From the IMG/VR virus record IMGVR_UViG_3300046779_000899, positions 1 to 56,544 of that record: 56,544 nucleotides of DNA. One strand, given 5' to 3'. Below are positions 33,469 through 51,925 of the stretch, piece by piece; position 1 is the stretch's first letter; every line of letters begins with the position of its first letter. A program made the translations under genes and the position numbers. The stretch is from a virus. Taxonomy: Duplodnaviria; Caudoviricetes. The notes beneath the pieces were generated by a model. The model was not told the DNA's origin and made no database searches. It worked only from the letters and a program-made list of their open reading frames with translations.

Positions 33469-35751
33469 ATTAAAACCCCAAGATTTTTTGCAGCGATATC
33501 TTTAATATTTGGATCGCTATTCTGGGCTACCCCAGCTAGTGCATCCACTATGACGCTAGAAGAAGCCCAAGCAGCTCTTGTCATTGCACAACAGGAAGTT
33601 GTTAATGCCACAGAGGCATTAAGCTCTGCCTCAGAGGCAGTTGCTTCTGCCACGGTATCTAGAGATGCTGCACAAGCATCATATAGCCAGGCATTGGAAG
33701 CATATCAAGCAACTGAGCAGGTAATTCCTGGAACATCTTCTACCACAACTCAGAATGTTGTACAGAATGGCACATTTGACAGCACTGCAGGATGGACAAA
33801 CGTTGTTGCAAGTAGCACGGTATATGGAACTGGAGCATCTCCACTTATCTATAATAATACTCTTAAAGGTTCTTATACTGCAGGAATCTACATACAGCAA
33901 ACAGGAACATTTCCAAGTCCAACAAGACAGGTAGCCTTTGCTGTAGACGTTTGGAACTACGACACCAACGAGGGTAATCGCATAAACAACCCAGACTACT
34001 ACCGTATTGAATTCCGCACATATAATGCTGCTGGCACAAGACTAAACTACTACAATCTTGAGTGGTCACAATGGCATGATTGGATTACTAGAGGTGCAAC
34101 ATATACCCTATCTGATGATGCAGTAAGATGGGATATTGGTTTCCGTATGCAGGACCAGGGATACTGGGCAGGAGCGTTTGGTCCAGTTATGGACAATGTG
34201 CGTCTTGAGGCCACTATGGTAACATCTACCCCAGACACTTATACGTATGGTGCAGAGGAAACAGCAGCCAAGGACGCTGCCTACCAAGCTTTGCAAACTG
34301 CACAGGCAGACCTCAACTCTGCCATCTCTGCTCAGACATCTGCCCAGACAAGGCTTAATATTGCAAATTCCGAGGTAGCTAGATTAACAGTTTTGGTAGC
34401 AGAATTAACACCACACCTAAATGCTCCTACAGGACTTACAGCAGTTATCAACGGAGCCAATGTTGATCTATCCTGGACAGCACCGCAGTCCAATCTTTCT
34501 GGGGTAGCTGTAGAGCGTTATGCAATTATGTGGTCTACAACAAACTTTGAGTCTAATGGCTGGGGGTGGTCTCACGATCAAACAACAATCTCTATCCCAT
34601 TAGACATTCTTAGTCAGCATGGTGGATTGGGAAATACATTCCAATTTGCAATTCGTGCAGACAACGATACCTTAGCTATTTATTCAGCAAGATCAAATAT
34701 TGCTTCAGTGCAAACGGTAGAGCCAGATTGGTGGCAAATACAATTTAACGAAGGCGATAGAGTAACTATTGGTGCACCAGAAGGATATGTATTTGGGACA
34801 CCGAGAGCCTGGTACGGATCTCCAACAGACCCAAGCTGTGGAGCTGACGTATCTTCAATTGTTGCTGGATATATTGCTGGCAATGCATCTGGAGATTTCT
34901 ATGCAGACAACGGAGCATTTGGAGATCCATGTGGTGGAGTGTACAAGGTTCTTAGATTAAGCACCCCAATTACGGCTGCTCCTGTTGTAATTGTTCCTAC
35001 ACCAACTCCAGAACCAACTCCAGAACCATCTCCACAACCAAGCCCAACACCTACTGAAACGCCTGTTATAATAGTACCAGAGCCTACACCAGCTCCAACA
35101 CCAGAGCCAACTGTAGAGCCTACTCCAGTGCCAAGTGAGGAGCCAGCTGTTGAGCCAACCCCAGAACCAACCGTTCCATCTGAGGGAGAGCCAACACCGT
35201 CGCCTACGCCTACCGAGACTCCTACTGAAGAGCCAACAGAAGTTGAGCCACAGCCGCTACCAGAACCAGAGCAAACAGAAACCCCAGAACCAGAACCAGA
35301 ACCTGAGTTACGAGTAGAAGAAGCTGTATCAGAGATTGAGAACCTGGTAGAAATAGCCCCAGAAGAGCTTACAGAGGCTCAGGTCGAACAACTTGTAGAA
35401 GCAGCCCTTGTTGTATTTGAAACAGCAGAGCAAGGCTCCCCAGAATATCAGCAGGCTCTTGAAGCACTTGCTGTGGCTGCAGAAGCAGATGATATAGAGC
35501 TACCACAAGAGCTGGCTGCCATACCACTACTTGGTGACGTTGCAGGTGCTGCTCTAGAAATATTTAATAATGTTGGTAACGTAGGTGCAGACATGTCTCC
35601 AGATGTGCGTGAGCAAGCTGAAAAGACTGTTATTGCATCAGTTATCGCTGCTCAGGCAGCAATCGGTGCTGTGGGAGCTGCAACTTCAGCGGCTACATCA
35701 GCAGCAGCATCCGCATCATCAAGTAGCGGTGGAACAAGGAGAATAAAATAA
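33469..35751 (+). CDS. Exported multidomain surface protein (carbohydrate-binding-like, FN3, SUEL-type lectin, Pro/Thr/Glu stalk, hydrophobic C-terminus)
   Basis: APTGLTA...LSWTAP (FN3); YG...C...[12 protein letters not shown] (SUEL lectin); PT/PE repeats. An in-frame signal peptide lies upstream of ATG 33550 and begins at ATT 33469. Confidence 0.7.
34995..35307 (+). repeat. Low-complexity (PT/PE)n coding repeat
   Basis: CCAGAACCA / CCAACTCCA-type iterations encoding [11 protein letters not shown]. Confidence 0.85.
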
Positions 35752-37195: not shown

Positions 37196-37999
37196 ATGAA
37201 AAAATTTATTAGTATTGTAGCATCTGCTATTTTTGCAGTATCACTGGCCACCCCAGTACACGCAGAAGAAACAAAGACATTGGCTATTGTTGATAGCTAC
37301 TTTGACCTCTCAAAGCTTTCTGGCAACATTGAGTCAGCCTGTATCGCAGTAGTTGGATGTGAGCTAACTCCAACACCAAAGGCTGGATTTTCAGACGCAT
37401 ACAACCACGGCACAGCAATGGCCGAGATTGCTCTAAAGCAAAATCCAAATGTTAAGCTATTGCTTATTCGAGCAGCTTCAGCAACCAAGAATATTCGAAC
37501 TGGCATTGTCTCCATTGGTACGCTAAATGGAAACGACTTTCTAAAGTCTTTGCAGTATGTTTCTACAAGGTCAGACGTAAATGCTGTATCCTTCTCATAT
37601 AACCTGTCTGGTAACAAGACATGTTCGCTATCTACAACTGGTGGCGTAAATGTTCGAGTCGTAGAACCACAGATCAAGGATGCTATTGTATCTCTTAAAT
37701 CTAAGAATGTCCCAGTATTTTCATCTACTGGAAACAAGGCAGGTGCTGCTGTAAACTATCCAGCATGTATTCAGGAAGTAAACTCTGTTGGGGTTGGAGA
37801 CCTAAATCGTAAGGGTAACATTTCTAGCGTATTTACGTTCGATGCTAATACTGACTACTTCGTAACTGGAACTGTTGCAAACTATAACTCAAAGATCTTT
37901 GGACTAATTCCAAATACCACTTCAGCTGGTAACGTAGCTGCTGCTGCAAAGTATTTGCTAGGATCGCTTGACAGCAAGTTTGTAAACGTGCTACAATAA
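37196..37999 (+). CDS. Secreted subtilisin-like (S8) peptidase
   Basis: Signal peptide ending VHA; AIVDS, NHGTAM, STGN, YPAC, TTSAG. Confidence 0.75.
   Translation: MKKFISIVASAIFAVSLATPVHAEETKTLAIVDSYFDLSKLSGNIESACIAVVGCELTPTPKAGFSDAYNHGTAMAEIALKQNPNVKLLLIRAASATKNIRTGIVSIGTLNGNDFLKSLQYVSTRSDVNAVSFSYNLSGNKTCSLSTTGGVNVRVVEPQIKDAIVSLKSKNVPVFSSTGNKAGAAVNYPACIQEVNSVGVGDLNRKGNISSVFTFDANTDYFVTGTVANYNSKIFGLIPNTTSAGNVAAAAKYLLGSLDSKFVNVLQ
37968..37997 (+). promoter_or_regulatory. Housekeeping-sigma promoter of the first tRNA/ncRNA cluster
   Basis: TTGACA-18-TACAAT with TG extension, 12 nt before tRNA-Asn. Confidence 0.75.
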
Positions 38000-38009
38000 T
38001 ATGTAGCAA

Positions 38010-38081
38010 TCCCCTTTAGCTCAACGGCAGAGCAGAGAGCTGTTAACTCTAAGGTTCCTGGTTCGAATCCAGGGAGGGGAG
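38010..38081 (+). tRNA. tRNA-Asn(GTT)
   Basis: Full cloverleaf; anticodon loop CTGTTAA; TTCGAAT. Confidence 0.95.
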
Positions 38082-38089
38082 CGATGGAG

Positions 38090-38244
38090 ATTAATCACTT
38101 CATTCGTAGGAGGCACTCTACGTAGAAAGCTGCCAGATGTAAGTATCTATAAACTTACCTCGTGGGGTTAGATCCCCTCAGCGGTTAGTTACCGATGTAG
38201 CAATAACTCAGTAGGTGAGGGAGTGATTTACCCAAGATCCTGCA
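38090..38244 (+). ncRNA. Candidate structured ncRNA A
   Basis: No ORF; closing helix plus internal hairpins and a possible pseudoknot (see findings). Confidence 0.5.
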
Positions 38245-38247
38245 CGG

Positions 38248-38322
38248 AGCGGTATAGAGGAGTTCGGAGTCCTCGTAGGCCTCATAAGCCTGAGATCGCA
38301 GGTTCGAATCCTGCTACCGCAA
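38248..38322 (+). tRNA. tRNA-Met(CAT), initiator-like
   Basis: Anticodon loop CTCATAA; A1/A72 mismatch. Confidence 0.9.
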
Positions 38323-38374
38323 CTAATGGTTCCACCTGCACCACTCTTCGGGTATAAGATAAAAGCAGGTAAAT

Positions 38375-38445
38375 GCGGATATTGCATAAAGGTAGTGCTT
38401 CAGTCTTCCAAACTGATGGTGGGAGTTCGATTCTCCCTATCCGCT
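38375..38445 (+). tRNA. tRNA-Gly(TCC)
   Basis: GCGGATA/TATCCGC acceptor, loop CTTCCAA, U73. Confidence 0.95.
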
Positions 38446-38449
38446 CAAA

Positions 38450-38632
38450 CACAGAAACGACGGTTTCTGTGGAGTATGGCTGAATAATCCTCAGAGTCAA
38501 ATGGGGAGGATAAGGCAACTTGGGGACTAGCGTCCAAGCTTAGCAAGCTAAACTGAGGGTGTGCTCAAAAGCGGATCTTACTGGACCGTATTGACTAGGC
38601 ACTGGTGGTAAAAAGCAATCCACCTACTCACA
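38450..38632 (+). ncRNA. Candidate structured ncRNA C
   Basis: At least six helices, including a pseudoknot. Confidence 0.55.
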
Positions 38633-38639
38633 CTACAGA

Positions 38640-38799
38640 CTTACACCTGCGGTTCGTAACTGTTCAGCACCTCGAAAGAGATCAAGTTGTAAGCTATAAT
38701 AGAATACACCACACTTGGTTAATTAAATCTGAGTACAGGCAATAGGTTATCCATGGTGTATCCGTCAAGGTTTGGTCTCCTGCATTGCAAATACGACCA
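38640..38799 (+). ncRNA. Candidate structured ncRNA segment D
   Basis: Three-way junction with GAAA tetraloop, an 8-bp closed domain and a hairpin. Confidence 0.4.
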
Positions 38800-38865
38800 G
38801 GGCTGTATGGTAACTGAAAGCACTTCAGGTGAAGCCATGTCAAACGGTGCAAATCCGACAGCCCA
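38800..38865 (+). ncRNA. tRNA-like RNA without canonical D/anticodon arms
   Basis: GGGCTGT/ACAGCCC-A acceptor-like stem; CGG-TGCAAAT-CCG T-arm-like hairpin. Confidence 0.55.
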
Positions 38866-38869
38866 CTAT

Positions 38870-38943
38870 GGCTCCATAGCTCAGTTGGTTAGAGCACCAC
38901 CCTGTCACGGTGGGGGTCGTCGGTTCAAGTCCGATTGGAGTCG
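38870..38943 (+). tRNA. tRNA-Asp(GTC)
   Basis: Cloverleaf; loop CTGTCAC; G73. Confidence 0.95.
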
Positions 38944-38959
38944 CTCTTTGTACATTGGT

Positions 38960-39092
38960 CTGAACAACCTAGTACTAAGATCGTTATACTGAAATCTGCA
39001 CCGTGGACGCATCAGGAGACGTGGTTCAGCACAATTGACCTGCTCTGCTAACCCACTAGGTATAACAGCTATCAGCTCTTTGCATGGATAGC
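38960..39092 (+). ncRNA. Candidate multiply pseudoknotted ncRNA F
   Basis: Three mutually crossing 6-bp complementarities plus hairpins. Confidence 0.5.
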
Positions 39093-39096
39093 ACAT

Positions 39097-39170
39097 GCTT
39101 CCTTAGCTCAGTTGGCCAGAGCAATCGCCTTGTAAGCGATAGGTCGTCAGTTCGAACCTGACAGGGAGCT
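39097..39170 (+). tRNA. tRNA-Thr(TGT)
   Basis: Cloverleaf; loop CTTGTAA. Confidence 0.95.
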
Positions 39171-39189
39171 CTCAATAGAAAGTGGGACA

Positions 39190-39894
39190 ATGCTAATAGT
39201 TGGCGGTATAGATATTGGAAACAGAATGGACACTAGTCCAAGAATGCTTAATGCAATCTCTCACTTCCAAGTTATTGTAGTAGAAAATATAGAAAGCTTC
39301 AATCGCATGTGCATCGAGCTAGGAATCAATCCTAAAGCCAAACTGATCGAATACTATGCACCTATGGAAGAGTCTAAGGAAAAAGCTGTAGTGCATGAAA
39401 TTCTAGAACACCTAAATCATGGCGATGATGTTCTACTCATGTCTGACGATGGAATGCCAGGCATAGCTGATCCAGGTGGACTTGTAATAGACTTGGCACA
39501 CAGAGTTGGCTACAGGGTTTCGGTATTTCCAGGACCATCAATTGTATCTACATTGCCAGCAGTGCTTGGTGTAGACAGCAGACGATTTACATTTGAGGAT
39601 GAGATCCCATCAGACAGGTCTGAGAGACTACAGCTACTGCAAAAACTGTATGTTGAGGGTAGGGGCGTTGTGTTCATTGTCAAGAATCGTAGAGATGACA
39701 ACTCAAACTTTAAAGAAGTAATTAAAGATATCGCCACAGTAATTCCAGAAGGAAATACTATTGGTATTGGGGTAAACCTAACAATGAAAAATGAGATAAT
39801 TATTAAGTCTAGAGTTGGCGAGCTATATAGTAGAATTGATCACTATAACTTTTCGCAAGAAGATTTTATATCTTTGTATGTAGATTGTAGATAA
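39190..39894 (+). CDS. RsmI-like (tetrapyrrole-methylase fold) SAM-dependent methyltransferase
   Basis: IGNRMDTSPR, LMSDDGMPGIADPG and FPGPS match the RsmI motifs IGNLxDxT.R, SDAGxPxISDPG and PGPS. Confidence 0.8.
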   Translation: MLIVGGIDIGNRMDTSPRMLNAISHFQVIVVENIESFNRMCIELGINPKAKLIEYYAPMEESKEKAVVHEILEHLNHGDDVLLMSDDGMPGIADPGGLVIDLAHRVGYRVSVFPGPSIVSTLPAVLGVDSRRFTFEDEIPSDRSERLQLLQKLYVEGRGVVFIVKNRRDDNSNFKEVIKDIATVIPEGNTIGIGVNLTMKNEIIIKSRVGELYSRIDHYNFSQEDFISLYVDCR

Positions 39895-40553
39895 TGGACA
39901 TCCTTACCGATACTAATTATGATTTTGATATTTGGTACAAGACATATGATCCAAACTTTGTGGAGATGTGTGCCAAATCAAAAGTTCCAGAGAAGTGGGT
40001 ATCATATCAGCCAGTATCTTCTGGAAAATACTCTGACTCAATAATTAAACCAATTAATGCATACGTTCAGAACCTATACCCACCACTAAAGCTTATTGGC
40101 ATATCAGGCAATACTGTAACTCTTAGGCAGCATAATCACGCAGAGATACTTTTGCTAGAGTCCGAGGGCATTCTGAAGGCACTGGACAGGCCATGGATAC
40201 GACAGTTTTATAATTCTAATAATCCAGAGCCAGCTACAGACGATTGCTTTTTAGATGCCTTTGTACTATACATCCCATGGTTTATAGATGAAGATGTCAG
40301 TGTCTCAATTGCTGGAGTAGACGGATCTCCATTTGTCGTATATGACAAGAGCTTTATGTATACCAAGATATCTAATGATGCAAGATATGTAGAGCCAGCA
40401 ATGGTCAAGTTTAGATTTAAAAGAGTCGGAGACCATATGTCTTCAAAATATGTCGGAAAAATCAAAAGAAATACACCTTTATTTGACATGAGCTTTGCGG
40501 CAAATGATATAATTATAGAAAGAGTTAGGAAATTCTATGAAGAAAATAATTAA
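39894..40553 (+). CDS. Hypothetical protein, distant relative of the next two genes
   Basis: C-terminal GKIKRNTPLFDM resembles IKQGTPLIQV. Confidence 0.5.
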   Translation: MDILTDTNYDFDIWYKTYDPNFVEMCAKSKVPEKWVSYQPVSSGKYSDSIIKPINAYVQNLYPPLKLIGISGNTVTLRQHNHAEILLLESEGILKALDRPWIRQFYNSNNPEPATDDCFLDAFVLYIPWFIDEDVSVSIAGVDGSPFVVYDKSFMYTKISNDARYVEPAMVKFRFKRVGDHMSSKYVGKIKRNTPLFDMSFAANDIIIERVRKFYEENN

Positions 40554-41259
40554 GTTTTACCCATTTAACGAAAGCACTTTGCAGTTTGCACCAGAACCTG
40601 TGCCAGCAAGCAAGATGATACCAGAGTGGTATCGCAAACAGCCAGGTATCGTCAAGAACGACAATGCCTACCTTGGTGGTGGTGTAGATGCAACTATTAA
40701 AAAGTGCATGGCTATCTTTGATGCCATTACAGTTGGGTACTATATCCTAGCTCCATGCGATATCTATGTAGATGCAACTGATCCAGAAAAGCTGTCATAT
40801 TCTGTACCAATGAAGATCAAGCAGTTTCAGTCAGACCTGTTTGCAATCCACTCTCCAGAGCAGTACGACCATTACCCAATTGATACTACAATCTATCACA
40901 AGCAGCTGCTAAGAATCTTCCCATTTTGGTCTGTAGAGACTCAGAAGGGCTATAGTGCATTCTACATGCAGCCACTACACAGGGCATTAGACACCCAGGC
41001 TATTCCAGGAATCATTGATACTGATAGATTTGTTTCAGAGGGGCACATGTCATTCCTGATTAAGAAGGGTTTCAAGGGTGTTATCAAGCAGGGTACTCCA
41101 CTTATCCAGGTTGTGCCATTCAAGAGAGACTCATGGACTAGTAAGATTGTTAGCATAAAAGAAGCTCTAAAGGTGCTAACTCTACAACGTTTTATTCTTA
41201 GAAGTAAATTTGTTAATTCATACAAAGATAACTTTTGGTTTAAAAAAGAGTATAAGTGA
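40537..41259 (+). CDS. Conserved phage protein with dUTPase-like beta-clip motifs (paralog 1)
   Basis: IPEWY, TIKKCMAIFDA, PGIIDTD, IKQGTPLIQVVPFKR. Confidence 0.6.
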   Translation: MKKIIKFYPFNESTLQFAPEPVPASKMIPEWYRKQPGIVKNDNAYLGGGVDATIKKCMAIFDAITVGYYILAPCDIYVDATDPEKLSYSVPMKIKQFQSDLFAIHSPEQYDHYPIDTTIYHKQLLRIFPFWSVETQKGYSAFYMQPLHRALDTQAIPGIIDTDRFVSEGHMSFLIKKGFKGVIKQGTPLIQVVPFKRDSWTSKIVSIKEALKVLTLQRFILRSKFVNSYKDNFWFKKEYK

Positions 41260-42026
41260 TTCCATTAAAGATAAAGTTTACTCCAGCATTTAAGAATTAT
41301 TCTGGACATCTGACCCCACCAGAGCCAGCCGTTAAGCACGTTCCAGAATGGTATAGGTCGCTAGCCAAGTTCGATAATTCTAATGATGAGATAACTCTAA
41401 AGCCAGTTAATAATTTAGGCACTGACGGTGCTCAAGTATCTACCAAGATGTGCATGCCGTTCTTTGACGCACTCACAGCTGGATACCAATATGTACTAGA
41501 GGATGATCTGCACGTTGATCTAGACGAAGAGGGCAAGCCCATGATGTGGTGGGCTGGAGATGTTATGCTTGTCGATAAGAGACCAATCGTAGACATTGTT
41601 GTTCCAGACAACTGTCATCCAATTCACTATGGTTGGAGAATGAACTGGTACTACGAGACTCCACCAGGATACTCTGTACTAATTACACACCCAATGAATA
41701 GGTATGATCTACCATTCTATGTTCAGTCTGGAATAGTTGAGTCTGATATATGGGGGCTTCCAGTTTTTGTAGCTTTCTTTCTAAAAAGAAACTTCCGTGG
41801 TGTAATTCCAAAAGGCACACCAATCATGCAGATCATACCATTCAAGCGTGATAACTGGGAGATGCAAGTCGAAGATTCTGAGGAAGCAATTGACAAGCAT
41901 GAATTCATGGCAGAGAACAGACGCTCCATGTTATTTGGATATTACAAAAAGACTGCTTGGAGAAAAAAGATCTTTGGCATTTTTGGAACACATTCAAAGA
42001 ATGTTGAGCATGACGATGAAGATTGA
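41256..42026 (+). CDS. Conserved phage protein with dUTPase-like beta-clip motifs (paralog 2)
   Basis: VPEWY, TKMCMPFFDA, TPPGYS, SGIVESD, IPKGTPIMQIIPFKR. Confidence 0.6.
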   Translation: MIPLKIKFTPAFKNYSGHLTPPEPAVKHVPEWYRSLAKFDNSNDEITLKPVNNLGTDGAQVSTKMCMPFFDALTAGYQYVLEDDLHVDLDEEGKPMMWWAGDVMLVDKRPIVDIVVPDNCHPIHYGWRMNWYYETPPGYSVLITHPMNRYDLPFYVQSGIVESDIWGLPVFVAFFLKRNFRGVIPKGTPIMQIIPFKRDNWEMQVEDSEEAIDKHEFMAENRRSMLFGYYKKTAWRKKIFGIFGTHSKNVEHDDED

Positions 42027-42855
42027 TGCCATAATATTCTCATATAAGAATAGAAATTTGAAGAGGGTAGTTGATGCGTTACTGTCAAATACTACTAATG
42101 AAATTTTTGTAACCGTGTTTGACCAGAATCCTATAGATAGGACAGAGATATTTGCTGATCCTAGAATTGATTATAGTCATGTGGTCTGGGATAAGATTGG
42201 CAGTCCTAGCGAAAGAAAGGGCGACGCTATAAACAAATCGCAGGCTGACTACATTCTGGAGCTATCTGACGATTCCCTGGTGTCTATGGGATGGGACGAA
42301 ATGCTAATTAAGCAAGTAGAGGAAAAATCTTGCATAGTTTCTGGTCGTGGCAAAGTAAATGTTTTTAAAGATGGGTATTTCTTTATTGAAAAAAACAATT
42401 CCCCAGAGGAGCCATCTCAATTAACTAATTATATAGATAGAAACTTTATATTTTCTAGCCAAAGAATTTGGAAGTCTATTCAATATCCGTACTACCTAAA
42501 ATATAATGGTGAGGAAGAGGCTCTAAGCCTAGACTTTTTTATGTCGGGATATGACATCTACTCAGCACCACAAATTACATACGAAGATCTTGGACTAAGG
42601 ACATTCCAAAATCTATATGTTCCATTCTCTAAAGACCACAATTACAATATGGTTGTTGACAAGCTGAATGAGTCAATATCAAAGACCAATTCCCGTAGAT
42701 CTGGCAAAGACTTTTTTCATTTTCACGGTATCGAAGATGCTACCCTAAAGCACCTACCATACCCTACCAACGATGTTCTATATGATCAATACAGGCTTAA
42801 GTTCCAGGACGTGGACGCAAGAAAGTTTATATCTAAAACAAAATCTATCTATTGA
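42010..42855 (+). CDS. GT-A glycosyltransferase, GT60/Gnt1-like
   Basis: IFSYKN start, YILELSDDS (DxD region), NFIFS, YNGEEEALSLDFFMSGYDIYSAP. Confidence 0.6.
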   Translation: MTMKIDAIIFSYKNRNLKRVVDALLSNTTNEIFVTVFDQNPIDRTEIFADPRIDYSHVVWDKIGSPSERKGDAINKSQADYILELSDDSLVSMGWDEMLIKQVEEKSCIVSGRGKVNVFKDGYFFIEKNNSPEEPSQLTNYIDRNFIFSSQRIWKSIQYPYYLKYNGEEEALSLDFFMSGYDIYSAPQITYEDLGLRTFQNLYVPFSKDHNYNMVVDKLNESISKTNSRRSGKDFFHFHGIEDATLKHLPYPTNDVLYDQYRLKFQDVDARKFISKTKSIY

Positions 42856-42878
42856 TATAATTAACATAGGAGGAAAAG

Positions 42879-43478
42879 ATGCACAGAATACACATAATTG
42901 ATAATTTTATTACACCAGAGGATGCTCAGACGCTAATCAATGAGCAGAAAAACCCATCTGAAGTTAACCCATACCCAGAGTATTACAAAGAACGGTTTGG
43001 TGGCACAGCTTTTCCATATAACAAGACGGTAATGGATCTTTTGATTAAGTATGGTCATAAGGCTAATGAAGTTCACAAAGAGCAAAATAGTTTTGTAAAT
43101 CCAATCTATGTTTTTAAGTCATTTGGATCTTGGTGGCAGCCAGGCACTAAGGGTGGCCTACATCTGGATGCACAAGACCCAGAACCCTTTATTGAGTGGA
43201 GCACTATTATCTATCTAAATGATCCTGCAGAGTATGAGGGTGGAGTGATATACTTCCCAAATCAAAACTTTGAATATAAGCCAAGACAGTACTCGGCAGT
43301 ATTCTTCCCATCAGCTGGATCTGAATATATTCACGGTATTACTGAAATTACTTCTGGCACTAGGCACACCGCACTATACATGCATACAAGCATTCCGCAA
43401 TACTTGGATCCAGAGTTTCACCCAGAGGTAGATCGAACCTACTGGCATGCACAGCAGCACCCATACGCTAGGGCATAG
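42879..43478 (+). CDS. Prolyl-4-hydroxylase-like 2OG-Fe(II) oxygenase
   Basis: IIDNFITPED, HLD, IIYLND.YEGG, HGITEITSGTR. Confidence 0.85.
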   Translation: MHRIHIIDNFITPEDAQTLINEQKNPSEVNPYPEYYKERFGGTAFPYNKTVMDLLIKYGHKANEVHKEQNSFVNPIYVFKSFGSWWQPGTKGGLHLDAQDPEPFIEWSTIIYLNDPAEYEGGVIYFPNQNFEYKPRQYSAVFFPSAGSEYIHGITEITSGTRHTALYMHTSIPQYLDPEFHPEVDRTYWHAQQHPYARA

Positions 43479-43479
43479 A

Positions 43480-44892
43480 ATGAGGGTGTTTGGATTTAAT
43501 GAGACATCACACGATGCTGCTTTGGCGGTGATTGAAGATGGCAAGATACTTTTTGCTGGACATGCTGAGCGTTATAGCAAGCAGAAGAATGACTGGTATA
43601 CCAATCAGGGGCTGTGGGATGATGCATATGGGTACGGTCAGCCAGATGCAATTGCATATTATGAAAAGCCATGGCTAAAAAGATTACGACTCTCGATAAA
43701 GGGCGGTGCAGCTGATTGGAAGCCAAAGAATAGATTTGATAAGTCGTTTGAACATCACTACTCTCACGCAGCCGCAGGCTACTTTACTAGTAACTTTGAA
43801 GATGCAACCATTGTTGTCCTAGATGCTATTGGAGAGTTCACAACTTCAAGTGTTTGGGTAGCCAAAGGCGATCAGATTAAGCTGCATAAAAAGTGGTCAT
43901 ACCCATACAGTCTTGGACTATTCTATTCGGCCTTCACACAATTGATTGGCCTCAAGCCAAACGAAGAAGAGTACATCATGATGGGGATGGCAGGCTATGG
44001 CAATCCAGATATTTATCTAGATAAAGTATCAGAATACTTTCCATCAGTTTACTCTCAGAAATATAATTTTCACAAAGGGATCTTAGACTGGAACTCAATC
44101 ATCTTAGAACAAGATAAGTTTGACATTGCAGCAGCAGTTCAAAAGGTATACGAAGACAGGCTATGGGACTTTATGTATATAGCACGTCAGGAGACACAAA
44201 GTGCTAATCTAGTATTCATGGGGGGCTGTGCCCTCAATAGCAAAGCAAACACTGTGCTGTGGGACATCTTTCCTAATGTTTGGATTATGCCTAATCCAGG
44301 AGATGCTGGAAGCTCTTTGGGGGCTGCAGCAGCCCTATACGGAAAGCATTTAGATTGGCAAGGACCGTATCTGGGATACGATCTTGGTGGGGAATATCCA
44401 GTAGACGATATCTTTAATGAGATAATGACAAACAAGATTGCAGCAGTAGCAACTGGAAGAGCTGAGTTTGGTCCTAGGGCATTAGGGAACCGCAGTATCT
44501 TGGCAGACCCACGTGACCCACAGATAAAAGATAAGGTGAATAAAATTAAGCAGAGAGAGTTGTTCAGACCTTTTGCTCCAGTAATCATGGCTGAGCATGC
44601 TTCAGAATGGTTTGATATGAACTATGAGTCTCCATACATGCAGTACACTCCAAAATGCTTAAAGCCAGATCTAATTCCATCTGTAGTTCATGTTGATGGT
44701 ACATCCAGGGTACAGACTGTCACTAGGATGCAACATCCAGGGTTATATGCAGTTCTTGAAAAATTCTATGCAGAAACTGGGGTACCGTTATTGCTAAATA
44801 CTAGCTTGAACATAAAAGGGCAGCCATTGCTTAATGATGAGCAGGACATTGAGGACTGGGAACGTAGATATAGTGCTAGAATTATTAGGTAG
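43480..44892 (+). CDS. O-carbamoyltransferase (NodU/CmcH/TobZ family)
   Basis: HDAA, ERY, HHYSHAA, GGCALN, EFGPRALGNRS, FRPFAP, HVDGTSRVQTV, LNTSLN. Confidence 0.95.
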   Translation: MRVFGFNETSHDAALAVIEDGKILFAGHAERYSKQKNDWYTNQGLWDDAYGYGQPDAIAYYEKPWLKRLRLSIKGGAADWKPKNRFDKSFEHHYSHAAAGYFTSNFEDATIVVLDAIGEFTTSSVWVAKGDQIKLHKKWSYPYSLGLFYSAFTQLIGLKPNEEEYIMMGMAGYGNPDIYLDKVSEYFPSVYSQKYNFHKGILDWNSIILEQDKFDIAAAVQKVYEDRLWDFMYIARQETQSANLVFMGGCALNSKANTVLWDIFPNVWIMPNPGDAGSSLGAAAALYGKHLDWQGPYLGYDLGGEYPVDDIFNEIMTNKIAAVATGRAEFGPRALGNRSILADPRDPQIKDKVNKIKQRELFRPFAPVIMAEHASEWFDMNYESPYMQYTPKCLKPDLIPSVVHVDGTSRVQTVTRMQHPGLYAVLEKFYAETGVPLLLNTSLNIKGQPLLNDEQDIEDWERRYSARIIR

Positions 44893-44904
44893 AAAGTAGG
44901 AGAA

Positions 44905-45549
44905 ATGGAATACGAAGTTTTAGACTTAGGTTTGGTTTACTATAAAAATGTAATACCAGATCCGCAGTTCATTATTGATACAGTTAATGATGTAGATGCA
45001 AGATTTTTGAATAACGAACATGGGGATGCCCATACTGATGTGAAGCCTTGGACAGCTTGGACATATGGCGACATGACCTTTAACTGGCAAAAGTTTTTCC
45101 CAGAATCAAAGCATGTGCGTGAGGATGACTATTTTAAAAATGAGGTACGGCAAGTATCCGATATGCTCTATTCGTCACTAGACAAGGCATATGAGCATTA
45201 TTCTAATGTCATTTACCCATTTGCTGCTAACAATATAAAGAGTCGTGAACAAAGCATTCACCTGCTAAGGTATGAAAAGGGTGGACACCTTCCTGCTCAT
45301 CAAGATCAGGGGGTCAGTAGCCGTGTGCTGTCTAGTGTGATGTACCTAAACGACAACTATGATGGTGGAGAAATAGAGTTTAAGAACTCTAATGTAAAGC
45401 TAAAGCCAGAAGCTGGAAGCATCATATTCTTTCCATCCAACTTTTTGTATATACATGAAGTATATCCAATAACTAATGGGGCAAGATATTCTATGCCACA
45501 CTGGTATCACAATATGAAAAATCTTATTCAGTCTAATGGTGATGAGTAA
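44905..45549 (+). CDS. Prolyl-4-hydroxylase-like 2OG-Fe(II) oxygenase
   Basis: HQD, MYLNDNYDGGEI, HEVYPITNGARY. Confidence 0.85.
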   Translation: MEYEVLDLGLVYYKNVIPDPQFIIDTVNDVDARFLNNEHGDAHTDVKPWTAWTYGDMTFNWQKFFPESKHVREDDYFKNEVRQVSDMLYSSLDKAYEHYSNVIYPFAANNIKSREQSIHLLRYEKGGHLPAHQDQGVSSRVLSSVMYLNDNYDGGEIEFKNSNVKLKPEAGSIIFFPSNFLYIHEVYPITNGARYSMPHWYHNMKNLIQSNGDE

Positions 45550-45601: not shown

Positions 45602-46354
45602 ATGTCTAAATATCAATATCCTATTGATGGAGCCATGGGTAAAACATGGAAGATCACTAGCAAGATGGGTTGGAGAATCCACCCAGTAAAGAAAGAAAAG
45701 AAGCACCACAATGGAACAGACATCTGTGGACTTGGTAAGGGTCCATGGTACATCGAAGCATTTGCTGATGGAAAAGTTCTAAAGGCCCAGGCATCTACAG
45801 CACCTGGTGGTGGCTTTGGTCACTATGTTGTTATCCAGCACAAGATTGATGGAGAGTGGTACACATCTCTATACGCACATATGGTTCCTGGATCAATCCA
45901 GGTTAAGGCTGGGCAAAAGGTTACAGCTGGAACCGTACTTGGAAAGATGGGAACATCTGGCATGTCTACTGGAGTACACCTTCACTGGGAGATCTGGAAG
46001 GGTAAGACTCACGGCTGGTCTGCAGATGGTAAGGGATTTGTCGAGCCAGTTGGATTTGTCAAGGCTTTGATGACTGCTCAGAAAGCAAAAGACTTTGCGA
46101 ATGAGGCAACTCCTGAAGATGCCCCACTTGTAGAAGCACCTGTAGTAGCAGCTCCAAAGCCAGTTGTAAAGGCAGCTCCAGTAGTTGCAAAGCCTGCTGC
46201 CAAATCTGCTGCCAAGATCTACAAGGTAAAGTCTGGTGATACTCTAAGCGGTATTGCTGCAAAGAATAAGACAACTGTAGCAGCACTAACTAAGCTAAAT
46301 GGTATTAAGGACGCTAGCAAGATTAGCGTAGGACAGGCAATCAAGCTACCATAA
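45602..46354 (+). CDS. Endolysin: M23 peptidase + LysM
   Basis: HNGTD, YAHM, TGVHLHWE; Pro/Ala/Lys linker; YKVKSGDTLSGIA LysM. Confidence 0.9.
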   Translation: MSKYQYPIDGAMGKTWKITSKMGWRIHPVKKEKKHHNGTDICGLGKGPWYIEAFADGKVLKAQASTAPGGGFGHYVVIQHKIDGEWYTSLYAHMVPGSIQVKAGQKVTAGTVLGKMGTSGMSTGVHLHWEIWKGKTHGWSADGKGFVEPVGFVKALMTAQKAKDFANEATPEDAPLVEAPVVAAPKPVVKAAPVVAKPAAKSAAKIYKVKSGDTLSGIAAKNKTTVAALTKLNGIKDASKISVGQAIKLP

Positions 46355-46530
46355 TGGCTACATACGAATACAAGTGCAAGTCATGCGATGCCTCTATAAC
46401 AGTATCTAGGGGCATCGCTGACAAAGAAATTGTTCCTAAATGTTTAGCTTGCAATACTGACTATAGTAGGGTATACTCTTCTTTAGGTGTTACCTTCAAG
46501 GGTAGCGGTTTTTATAGTACAGACAAATAG
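46354..46530 (+). CDS. FmdB-family zinc ribbon protein (not in ORF track)
   Basis: Manual translation MATYEYKCKSC...CLAC...FKGSGFYSTDK. Confidence 0.85.
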   Translation: MATYEYKCKSCDASITVSRGIADKEIVPKCLACNTDYSRVYSSLGVTFKGSGFYSTDK

Positions 46531-46538
46531 GAGTATTA

Positions 46539-46781
46539 GTGTTTGAGTTAGCAGAGCCAAAGACTTGGGTTCTTACAGCAGCAGACAGATGTGATGCAGA
46601 TTGTTCTGCACAGGCATATGTAAAGGTTACTGGAGTAACTGGAGATCTTTTGTTCTGCTCTCATCACTATGACGAAGTAATGAACAGCACATCTGGGTAT
46701 GAAAAGATGATGAAATTCGCATATGACTTTTTAGATGAACGAGAAAGACTTATCGAAAACAGGTTAGTTGGGGAAAATTGA
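46539..46781 (+). CDS. Small Cys/His protein
   Basis: LTAADRCD..C.AQAY...LFCSHH; GGAG RBS, GTG start. Confidence 0.6.
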   Translation: MFELAEPKTWVLTAADRCDADCSAQAYVKVTGVTGDLLFCSHHYDEVMNSTSGYEKMMKFAYDFLDERERLIENRLVGEN

Positions 46782-47539
46782 TTATCCAAATTATTGGTCT
46801 ACCAGGTAGTGGAAAGACTACTCTGGCAAAAGCATTGCTAGAGAAAATAGATGCTGTGCACTTAAATGCTGATGAGGTAAGAGCAACAGTAAATTCAGAT
46901 TTAGGCTTTAGCATTGAAGATAGAATTGAGAATGCTAGGAGGCTTGGGGCAATTGCCGAACTACTTTCTTCACAAGGTCGAACAGTTATCGTTGATTTTG
47001 TTTGTCCAACAGTAGAGACAAGAAAAGCTTTTGGCTATTCAGATTTTCTAATTTGGATGGATAGAATTGACGAAGGCAGATTTGCGGACACCAACTCTAT
47101 CTGGCAAAAACCAGCAGTCTGCGATCTTAGAATTGTTAATGGTCTTTCTGTGGAAGAAGAAGTAAGTCTGGTCATCAAAGAAGCAGAACTATTTGATTGG
47201 TCTGCCCCAACTACCCTACAGCTTGGTAGATATCAGCCATGGCATGAGGGACATCAGGCACTGAAGGACGAGGCACACAAACGAACAGACCAGGTGCTAA
47301 TTGGGATAAGGAATACGTATGGAACTTCGGAAAAGGATCCGCTCACTTATGAGCAAGTTGAACAAAGGATTGTTGCATATTGGGGAGATTTACAGCAAAA
47401 TACCATGGTCATGAGATTGCCAAACATTACTAACATAGTGTACGGACGTGATGTGGGCTATAAGATTGAAAAAGTTGAGCTGCCACCAGAGATTCAGGCT
47501 ATCTCTGCCACACAAAAACGGAAAGAGCTTGGCATATGA
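46778..47539 (+). CDS. APS-kinase-like P-loop domain fused to an HxGH nucleotidyltransferase domain
   Basis: GLPGSGKT, DLGFSIEDRIEN; GRYQPWHEGH; YGRDVGY. Confidence 0.8.
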   Translation: MIIQIIGLPGSGKTTLAKALLEKIDAVHLNADEVRATVNSDLGFSIEDRIENARRLGAIAELLSSQGRTVIVDFVCPTVETRKAFGYSDFLIWMDRIDEGRFADTNSIWQKPAVCDLRIVNGLSVEEEVSLVIKEAELFDWSAPTTLQLGRYQPWHEGHQALKDEAHKRTDQVLIGIRNTYGTSEKDPLTYEQVEQRIVAYWGDLQQNTMVMRLPNITNIVYGRDVGYKIEKVELPPEIQAISATQKRKELGI

Positions 47540-49684: not shown

Positions 49685-49966
49685 ATGAAGAATGACTGGA
49701 AAGAAAAAGGTTCCTGCCATAATTATGATACTAACTTCTTTTTTGATAAGTACGAAGAAAACATTCAGCTAAGATCTGCAATAGATCAATTATGCTATGA
49801 ATGTCCATTAGTTAGACACTGTTTTGCTGTTGGTGTATCCACAAAGGCCTGGGGCGTTTGGGGTGGGGTATATCTGGAGAATGGAGAAATCTCTAGAGAA
49901 TTCAATAGACACAGAACAAAGGTTCAGTGGGCTGAAAAATGGAAAAACTTAACGATGGATAAATGA
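49685..49966 (+). CDS. whiB: WhiB-family transcription factor
   Basis: W...C...FF...CYECPLVRHC...GVWGG. Confidence 0.88.
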   Translation: MKNDWKEKGSCHNYDTNFFFDKYEENIQLRSAIDQLCYECPLVRHCFAVGVSTKAWGVWGGVYLENGEISREFNRHRTKVQWAEKWKNLTMDK

Positions 49967-51202: not shown

Positions 51203-51925
51203 CTATTCTATGTTTGGCTTAATCTTGCCAAATGTAGGGTCAAACACATACTCTAGCTTTGGCTGATAGTACTTGTTTGGATCTAAGAGATCCTGACGAT
51301 CTTGTCTCTCATCAAAAGTAATCTCATTAAAGAAGCAGACCATGGTAATTCTTGTTCCACTCTTTACTGGATGTACCTTGTGCTCATAGCTGTATCCAGA
51401 TGGGAACATAAACAACTGTCCAGCCTTAGGCTTTACCTTAATTCCAAAGTGTATAAACTCAAGCTCTCCACCCTCGTAATCGTCATTTGGGTAGTAGACC
51501 ATAGATGCAGTTCGTGGGGTGGCAAAGGTATCATCAGAATGCGAACCAAAGAATTCCCCTGGTCCAGTAAACTTGGTAATTCTAAGATCTTCTCTACTCT
51601 TGGGGTCCAGGTTCCAGTGGTACAGGTAAGAGTCAATAACTTCTTCTAGGTTGGCGGTAACTTCTGGATCACTCCATACCCAGCAGGTACGACTCTTCTT
51701 GCCAGTATCCTCATCTAGATAATCTTCTCTAATCCATTTTCTATTTCCTGGTCGGTTCTCTTCCCAGTACTCATCATTCTCAATCTTGTTAAAGAAGTCC
51801 ATAGAGTTAGGCCATACATCGCTATAGATATGCACACCAGGAATTGGGGATTCGTAGGGGAATACATTGTCTTTGCGACTTCTTGTTACCTTCATTGCCG
51901 CATCATCTAAGCGTTCTTTGATCAT
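51203..51925 (-). CDS. Prolyl-4-hydroxylase-like 2OG-Fe(II) oxygenase
   Basis: HSD, YPNDDYEGGEL, HKVHPVKSGTR; own TGCTATAAT on the minus strand near 51950. Confidence 0.85.
   Translation of the reverse strand: MIKERLDDAAMKVTRSRKDNVFPYESPIPGVHIYSDVWPNSMDFFNKIENDEYWEENRPGNRKWIREDYLDEDTGKKSRTCWVWSDPEVTANLEEVIDSYLYHWNLDPKSREDLRITKFTGPGEFFGSHSDDTFATPRTASMVYYPNDDYEGGELEFIHFGIKVKPKAGQLFMFPSGYSYEHKVHPVKSGTRITMVCFFNEITFDERQDRQDLLDPNKYYQPKLEYVFDPTFGKIKPNIE

Follow-up and report, generated by a model that had tools for sequence, protein, structure and literature searches.

A conserved gene block of uncultured phages that may hydroxylate, glycosylate and often carbamoylate a protein

In the Skp1 pathway of Dictyostelium and Toxoplasma, a prolyl 4-hydroxylase (P4H)-type oxygenase, PhyA, is followed by Gnt1, a glycosyltransferase of family GT60 that acts only on hydroxylated proline (PMC6939170). 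Glycosylation of the virions of actinobacteriophages is known as well (PMC12582341). Also, a phage enzyme turns 5-hydroxymethylcytosine (5hmC) into 5-carbamoyloxymethylcytosine in DNA, RNA, and deoxynucleoside triphosphates; this carbamoyltransferase, which an earlier note on the DNA studied here had cited, is indeed published (Yang et al., eLife 2021, PMC8670742). Here we describe a block of seven or eight phage genes in IMG/VR record IMGVR_UViG_3300046779_000899, whose whole stretch of 56,544 bases we call the window. The block encodes a glycosyltransferase (GT), two P4H-like oxygenases, usually an O-carbamoyltransferase, and three proteins distantly related to DUF6065. We suggest, tentatively and stopping short of calling it probable, that it carries out protein hydroxylation, then glycosylation, then carbamoylation. 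The earlier note, made from the letters of the window, had proposed such a pathway for four of the genes. The enzyme families are as it proposed, but the number of genes, the fixed carbamoylation and the named target did not hold up. The module is not described in the literature that we searched.

Like the Skp1 pathway, the module combines a P4H-type oxygenase with a GT-A glycosyltransferase of the PF11397/GT60 type, and the block FIFS...GEE..LS....GYD.YS.P is common to its GT and to the GT family of that pathway. Also, we saw no hydrophobic segment in the eight module proteins that would hint at a membrane or export signal (the highest 19-residue Kyte-Doolittle mean is 1.53), so the chemistry is expected to be cytoplasmic, as it is for Skp1. 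On the other hand, the Skp1 pathway is eukaryotic and bacteria have no Skp1, whereas here we see a phage operon. Where an aligned PF11397 protein has DAH, the module's GT has SDD, and the GT is shorter (281 aa). And the Skp1 pathway has no second oxygenase, carbamoyltransferase, methylase or trio of DUF6065-like proteins. The glycosylation of mycobacteriophage virions is similar in that actinobacteriophage-encoded GTs act on virion proteins in the cytoplasm, but no cultured phage among 50,697 records has a relative of the module's GT. In that system, mycobacteriophage GTs reportedly decorate the phage's own structural proteins (Freeman et al. 2023), by O-glycosylation of Ser/Thr without oxygenases or a carbamoyltransferase.

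The four adjacent genes of the original proposal, at 42010-45549, are real open reading frames (ORFs), all on the plus strand, which overlap or are separated by 23 nucleotides (nt) at most. They encode the GT (42010..42855, 281 aa); an oxygenase that we call Oxy1 (42879..43478, 199 aa); a carbamoyltransferase of the NodU/CmcH/TobZ type (43447..44892, 481 aa, with a likely true start near 43480, where its relatives in sequence start); and a second oxygenase, Oxy2 (44905..45549, 214 aa). Upstream on the same strand are the DUF6065-like genes b (41256..42026) and a (40537..41259), their distant paralog u (39894..40553), and an accessory member, an RsmI-like methyltransferase of the TP_methylase family (39190..39894; Pfam TP_methylase, 60.9 bits).

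The GT has 57 close homologs, all of them metagenomic, and 65 viral loci were recovered with the GT alignment. The block is kept across these loci; conservation of the cluster in relatives was one of the checks that the earlier note had proposed. For the counts that follow, the window's proteins were placed on the loci by tblastn, and we considered the 50 loci with at least 3 kb to the left and at least 5 kb to the right of the GT. These loci were not dereplicated and several are near-identical (there are 42 distinct b sequences among 61). The u, a, and b genes each lie upstream of the GT at all 50 loci. An Oxy2-like gene is found within 6 kb of the GT at 49 (at 40 of them with at least 40% identity), Oxy1 near the GT at 44, the carbamoyltransferase at 39, and the RsmI-like methylase within 6 kb at 14 (at 2 of them with at least 40% identity). 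So the unit comprises seven or eight genes rather than four, with the methylase often added, and the carbamoyltransferase is dispensable rather than a fixed part; we view carbamoylation as an optional last step. The order of the genes varies while their adjacency is kept: the carbamoyltransferase may come before or after Oxy2, or upstream of u (L057-L061). In a lineage that lacks the carbamoyltransferase (L047, 11867-17672), a short-chain dehydrogenase follows Oxy2, and the block adjoins genes for a ConA-like protein, the portal and the prohead protease. In two lineages there are extra ORFs between b and the GT; we considered whether these are further DUF6065-like genes and ruled it out, as they have no such likeness. 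Finally, the four genes had no megablast match in the 50,697 phage records, and the GT had no tblastn match in the same records: no cultured relative carries it.

Is the GT a relative of Gnt1? The earlier note asked for a comparison of PF11397 with GT2, and the outcome was mixed, as the window's GT is below the cut-offs of both while distant matches to its family are best described by PF11397 and never by GT2. Scanned singly, 19 of the 38 aligned homologs match PF11397 (counted at E ≤ 0.01; best 2.7e-8) and 21 match GT2 (best 5.1e-6). Among the 57 homologs, 6 have precomputed PF11397 matches. When a profile of the family was searched against 1.84 billion representative proteins, it gave 457 matches at E ≤ 1e-3, and it reaches true PF11397 proteins at E values of 1.8e-22 to 9.2e-12. 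Ten distant matches were picked by hand, not at random, from the weak end of the 150 that were listed among the 457; the best Pfam family was PF11397 for 8 of them (27 to 889 bits), none for 2, and GT2 for 0. Also, hhalign aligned the family with a true PF11397 protein of 321 aa over 234 columns (probability 97.7%, E = 2.4e-12) and lined up the block FIFS...YP..LKYNGEEE.LS....G.DIYS.P between the two. The motifs NFIFS and GEE...S......GYDIY are present in the GT as had been claimed, in a stretch that aligns with the true PF11397 protein. The further claim of GYDIY.P was right about GYDIY and slightly off about the proline, as the protein reads GYDIYSAP, with two residues rather than one before the P. 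By sequence, then, the GT is related over its full length to the GT60/PF11397 family, as first suggested, but it has diverged and is not a formal Pfam member.

The structural model of the GT agrees with this. The AlphaFold2 (AF2) model has a mean predicted local distance difference test score (pLDDT) of 89.3 and shows a GT-A fold with an acidic SDD motif, in which D87 is invariant and D88 is at least 90% conserved among the 38 aligned sequences; the YP..LKYNGEEE.LS block is also conserved. In a Foldseek search of the PDB, the top matches are polypeptide N-acetylgalactosamine (GalNAc)-transferases (GT27, which perform protein O-glycosylation; best E = 4.3e-11), followed by TarP. There were 830 fold matches at E ≤ 1e-3, so the fold alone says GT-A and no more. 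By sequence, neither the single protein nor the family profile had a usable match among solved structures. An enzyme of the PF11397 type would be expected to use UDP-N-acetylglucosamine (UDP-GlcNAc) as its donor and to transfer the sugar to hydroxyproline or threonine of a polypeptide.

Some of the distant matches of the GT profile join this kind of GT to this kind of oxygenase in one chain. Two of them (1641 and 1344 aa) contain several PF11397 domains together with 2OG-FeII_Oxy_3; a third combines PF11397 with two other domains, an O-fucosyltransferase and a PLOD-type GT; and the source of a fourth, of 2461 aa, gives its name as Tpa1-like proline hydroxylase. Alignment of the fused oxygenase domain gave E = 1.5e-8 with Oxy2 and 4.3e-6 with Oxy1. 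These fusions are independent support for the two types of enzyme working together. Across the metagenomic giants P0170, P0175, P0184, and P0176 (1344-2461 aa), PF11397 domains are found with 2OG-FeII_Oxy_3, AhpC-TSA, O-FucT or PLOD-GT.

Both oxygenases have the residues that are expected of active 2-oxoglutarate (2OG)-dependent iron enzymes. The iron-binding HxD...H triad and the basic residue that binds 2OG are H132, D134, H184, and R194 in Oxy2 (invariant in 20 sequences) and H95, D97, H152, and R162 in Oxy1 (invariant in 18). Oxy2 matches 2OG-FeII_Oxy_3 at 66.3 bits (cut-off 27). Oxy1 has no Pfam match at E ≤ 0.01 and matches phrog_61, which is annotated as 2OG-Fe(II) oxygenase, at 5e-14; it is 91% identical to its nearest relative. 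A profile of Oxy2 matched 50 PDB sequences at E ≤ 0.1, the best being the P4H of Bacillus anthracis (1.6e-7): 44 are protein prolyl or lysyl hydroxylases, 4 are of the PKHD/PiuC type, and 2 are TET-like (E = 0.039 or worse). The Oxy1 profile matched 9 at E ≤ 1, and all 9 are of the P3H, P4H or PKHD type (best, prolyl 3-hydroxylase 1 or P3H1, 1.2e-6). So the earlier identification of two P4H-like genes stands, and the nearest solved relatives of both are protein prolyl or lysyl hydroxylases. From this resemblance to protein hydroxylases, peptidyl-proline would be a candidate substrate. A third 2OG-oxygenase-like gene lies apart from the block on the minus strand (51203-51925, 240 aa; Tet_JBP 13.4 bits), with a minus-strand counterpart in L002 and L003.

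The carbamoyltransferase matches Carbam_trans_C (181.5 bits) and Carbam_trans_N (141.1 bits), both above the cut-offs, and its PDB matches are NovN (3.9e-50), GdmN, and TobZ (1e-38), which bears out its assignment as an O-carbamoyltransferase of this type. These closest solved relatives carbamoylate hydroxyls, some of them on sugars. We expect the carbamoyl-AMP mechanism to be alike. On the other hand, the module's enzyme is about 100-200 residues shorter than NodU, TobZ, NovN or GdmN, and its best NCBIfam match, NodU, scores 165.3 bits, far below the equivalog cut-off of 1000. We also looked for guidance at the closest named carbamoyltransferase, from Ralstonia phage RsoM2USA (45% identity), whose context is different and gave no help. 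In that phage (L001, 4038-9614), the gene follows three genes for DUF6071 proteins and one that is radical-SAM-like, which may form another kind of tailoring cassette.

By sequence comparison, the a and b proteins are distant relatives of DUF6065, not members: they are paralogs that belong to phrog_7084 (5.7e-43 for a and 6.6e-35 for b), and b scores 17.8 bits against DUF6065 (PF19541; cut-off 26.6), with 21 of the 37 members of its family matching at E ≤ 0.05 (best 1e-5). The u protein is a more distant paralog (hhalign probability 72%, E = 3.3e-5), and its Atlas feature neighbours include a DUF6065-bearing cluster. With 88% identity to its nearest relative, b is among the best conserved proteins of the block. 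The AF2 model of b (pLDDT 79.8) has as its top PDB matches only trimeric dUTPases and dCTP deaminases, at E = 2e-3 or worse, with template modeling (TM) scores of 0.24-0.35 by query and 0.4-0.65 by target. Sequence does not back this up. Five related contigs are complete (CheckV 100%; two have terminal repeats), and none of these five has a match to PF00692, the trimeric dUTPase/dCTP deaminase family, at E ≤ 0.1, though all five carry u, a, and b. An hhalign comparison with an ORF of phage 80alpha that is presumably its dUTPase (annotated "Na/K ATPase" in the record) gave a probability of 0.9%. With such weak fold matches and failed sequence tests, the trio has a dUTPase-like barrel at best. 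A search of solved structures with the a/b profile found no match by sequence, and when the complex of u, a, and b was predicted, a control scored close to the real set, so this prediction is neutral on the idea of a hetero-oligomer.

The contexts of other relatives of the trio were tried as leads and rejected. In the haloarchaeal virus HF2, the phrog_7084 homolog is a lone gene between ribonucleotide reductase and tail genes, which is uninformative. We found 18 bacterial loci with DUF6065-like genes, and in the Bradyrhizobium and Rhodobacterales genomes there is no GT, oxygenase or carbamoyltransferase by them. DUF6065 is not mentioned in the literature that we searched. As side observations, 49 records of haloarchaeal tailed viruses (HF2, HRTV, and HCTV types), which are remote from the actinophage lineage, contain homologs of a and b with an identity of about 30%, and in both of the alphaproteobacterial chromosomes examined (L088 and L093) the DUF6065-like gene has a convergent TPR-repeat gene as a neighbour.

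How might these proteins work together? The gene families, the intact catalytic residues, the tight packing and the conservation of the block can be observed directly. From these we infer the class of substrate, the order of the steps, the donor sugar, the acceptor, and the target. Our proposal is that the module is a cytoplasmic, operon-encoded tailoring pathway, most likely for a protein of the phage or of its host. Oxy1, Oxy2, or both would hydroxylate a side chain, most likely of proline or lysine. The GT would then move a hexosamine-type sugar from a UDP-sugar to that hydroxyl, or to Ser/Thr. In most lineages, the carbamoyltransferase would form carbamoyl-AMP from carbamoyl phosphate and ATP and would O-carbamoylate a hydroxyl of the sugar, as a NodU/TobZ-type enzyme; in some lineages, the RsmI-like methylase would add a methyl group. 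As for u, a, and b, our guess is that they serve to present the substrate or to produce the acceptor.

Several observations weigh against protein as the substrate. The earlier note had pointed to the protein at 33550-35751, which has a striking Pro/Thr/Glu stalk, as a proline-rich lectin-stalk target, but only two of the five complete, module-bearing genomes have a relative of this protein, so it cannot be the general target. The GT missed both Pfam models, with 22.9 bits for GT2 (cut-off 23.3) and 20.5 bits for PF11397 (cut-off 21); its fold match to TarP is nearly as good as to GT27, and some other enzymes with a GT-A fold modify teichoic acids or the bases of RNA or DNA. The similarity of the oxygenases to P4H is modest (1.6e-7 at best) and limited to the catalytic core. 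The u/a/b trio is invariant, yet it has no place in any known pathway of protein glycosylation, and it has a weak fold likeness to dUTPases, which bind nucleotides. As for context, the module in the window sits amid genes for replication and nucleotide metabolism, away from the virion genes, and tRNA genes and an RsmI-like RNA methylase adjoin it. Finally, the 65 loci may all come from one clade of phages, so that their conservation would partly reflect shared ancestry. To our knowledge, this combination of hydroxylation, sugar, and carbamoyl on a protein has never been shown in a phage.

A more specific version of the proposal is that the phage modifies a protein in the manner of eukaryotes and converts proline to hydroxyproline (Hyp) and then to Hyp-O-N-acetylhexosamine (Hyp-O-HexNAc), with O-carbamoyl and sometimes methyl on the sugar; that this needs the dUTPase-shaped, DUF6065-like trio, which would be either a hetero-oligomeric adaptor or an enzyme of a new kind; and that, in view of the neighbouring tRNA and RsmI-like genes, the module may act on the translation machinery of the host instead of on the virion. 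All of this together seems unlikely to us. We know of no description of a carbamoylated glycan of the Hyp-O-HexNAc type on any protein.

The published 5hmC enzyme raises the question of whether the block instead hypermodifies DNA bases: 5-hydroxymethyl pyrimidines, made by the oxygenases or by another route, would be glycosylated by the GT, as happens in T4 and with base J, and carbamoyl would cap the sugar or the hydroxymethyl group. The published enzyme is encoded by phages, has the same two Pfam domains, and uses carbamoyl phosphate and ATP to O-carbamoylate a hydroxyl, but it is a 63 kDa protein (the module's enzymes have 470-481 aa) that co-occurs with a homolog of thymidylate synthase which makes 5hmC, and only 17 of the 62 carbamoyltransferase genes of that study were on modified contigs (PMC8670742). 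No thymidylate-synthase-family gene, no ThyX, no C5 DNA methylase, and, as mentioned above, no member of the dUTPase family was found in any of the five complete relatives. The earlier note saw no dCMP hydroxymethylase or TET/JBP gene in the window, and neither do we: PF00303 had 0 matches there, and the two matches to PF12851 (Tet_JBP), of 13.7 and 13.4 bits, fall short of its 34.9-bit cut-off. In relatives, Tet_JBP matches reach 22.1 bits, still sub-threshold, on Oxy2-type genes and with the C-terminal half of the model only; weak matches of 13-22 bits to Oxy2-type genes do lend the idea some support, as do the fold likeness of u/a/b to dUTPase or dCTP deaminase and the proximity of the block to genes for ribonucleotide reductase, polymerase, and nuclease. 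The avoidance of restriction sites also counts against DNA. The window is indeed purged, as had been noticed: GCGC, CCGG, and CGCG each occur 0 times in its 56,544 bases, where base composition predicts about 100 of each and a Markov model predicts 37, 26, and 16. Of the 65 loci, only one has CCGG and only four have CGCG, in each case as a single copy; the window's lineage has no GCGC; and many other lineages with the full module have no AGCT, of which 23-72 copies would be expected. So complete a lack of short palindromes is a strong sign of restriction systems in the host and is not expected with global hypermodification of C or T, so globally hypermodified C or T seems unlikely. In the window itself, the full purge is limited to sites made of G and C only, so thymine modification is not contradicted there. 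Overall, the cytosine alternative is weakened, while sparse or site-specific modification, or a J-like thymine route via these oxygenases, may occur; we consider base hypermodification quite improbable.

RNA is another conceivable substrate, as the module begins just 19 nt after an array of five tRNA genes (Asn-GTT, Met-CAT, Gly-TCC, Asp-GTC, and Thr-TGT; 38010..39171, plus strand). In this scenario, the block would be an island that modifies phage tRNAs (for example Asn, Asp or Thr), rRNA, ribosomal proteins or EF-Tu for the takeover of translation. Among 27 loci chosen to span the types of arrangement, 17 have tRNA genes that lie, on either side, no more than about 600 nt from where the module ends, and all 17 include tRNA-Asn(GTT), often accompanied by Asp, Glu, and Thr; in the rearranged L057 and L060, the tRNAs are on the opposite side of the block. 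But at the other 10 loci the module is intact and there is no tRNA gene in the stored flanks, and the adjacency may be inherited synteny. The first gene of the module is closest to RsmI, yet its best NCBIfam match, the 16S rRNA C1402 2'-O-methyltransferase, is at 67.9 bits, far below the equivalog cut-off of 167.9, and this gene is near the GT at only 14 of 50 loci. NodU/TobZ enzymes have their two domains in common with the enzymes for N6-threonylcarbamoyladenosine (t6A), and P4H-type enzymes of bacteria and eukaryotes hydroxylate EF-Tu and the ribosomal protein uS12. On the other hand, we know of no oxygenase or glycosyltransferase from the P4H-like or PF11397 families that modifies RNA. RNA is among the substrates of the published phage carbamoyltransferase (PMC8670742), but on balance an RNA or translation island strikes us as quite improbable. 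The remaining possibility is that the module tailors a glycan or small molecule, which would place a carbamoylated sugar on a polymer of the envelope (for example for superinfection exclusion, as with TarP) or on a free metabolite or nucleotide sugar. The carbamoyltransferase has solved relatives whose substrates are all small molecules (novobiocin, geldanamycin, tobramycin), and its best NCBIfam match is NodU; the top fold matches of the GT include TarP, a phage-encoded GT for the decoration of wall teichoic acid; one lineage has a short-chain dehydrogenase in place of the carbamoyltransferase; and a cell-wall hydrolase is encoded directly 3' of the block. However, the eight proteins have no membrane- or export-like segment, and a Pfam and NCBIfam scan of the block found no gene for sugar-nucleotide synthesis, no flippase, and no polyprenyl-linked enzyme. 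Also, the GT is related in sequence to PF11397 proteins; the characterised members of that family are protein transferases, and some of the GT's relatives are fused to P4H-like domains. So we think that a glycan or small-molecule substrate is unlikely.

If the proposed tailoring of a protein is correct, then hydroxyproline-linked glycosylation, which so far is known from protists, plants, and giant viruses, also takes place in phage-infected bacteria, along with a new carbamoylated sugar. It would also provide the first functional handle on DUF6065. Because the module is common in uncultured phages (65 loci in a single collection of viruses and 457 relatives of the GT in the protein library), it bears on host recognition, virion stability or the takeover of translation in abundant environmental bacteria. 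And because its genes are small, soluble, and expressible, the question can be tested directly.

The module belongs to a large phage. CheckV estimates that the window, at 56.5 kb, is about 49% of the genome. It has a G+C content of about 41% and contains a tape-measure gene, tail genes, a DnaB-type helicase, a UvsX-like recombinase, ribonucleotide reductase, and 13 tRNA genes. Its DnaE-type polymerase is 56% identical to those of 127 kb Streptomyces phages. The phage is siphovirus-like, of the DnaE type, with a genome of roughly 115-125 kb, and its host is probably among low-GC actinobacteria. In keeping with such a host, a small Cys-rich ORF (49685-49966) resembles WhiB-type regulators by eye and may encode one.

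The transcription unit may be larger than the module. Its start could possibly be the best sigma-70-like promoter match, TTGACA-18-TACAAT with TG (37968..37997, plus strand; 11 of 12 hexamer positions match), which is just 5' of tRNA-Asn; this match is weak, given 24 sites in the region against 23.7 in shuffled sequences. The last gene is probably the cell-wall hydrolase, though its membership is uncertain. This gene (45602..46354, plus strand) is directly 3' of the module, encodes Peptidase_M23 and LysM domains (by Pfam) with a Pro/Ala-rich linker, and follows the module at 7 of 50 loci. A terminator-like hairpin is found at 46488-46507, and the total counts of hairpins and promoters are no higher than in shuffles. 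Next comes a gene (46778-47539) for an APS-kinase-like P-loop kinase fused to a domain that resembles cytidylyltransferases and nicotinamide mononucleotide (NMN) adenylyltransferases (phrog_10255), and this kinase-cytidylyltransferase fusion lies within 6 kb of the GT at 24 of the 50 well-flanked loci.

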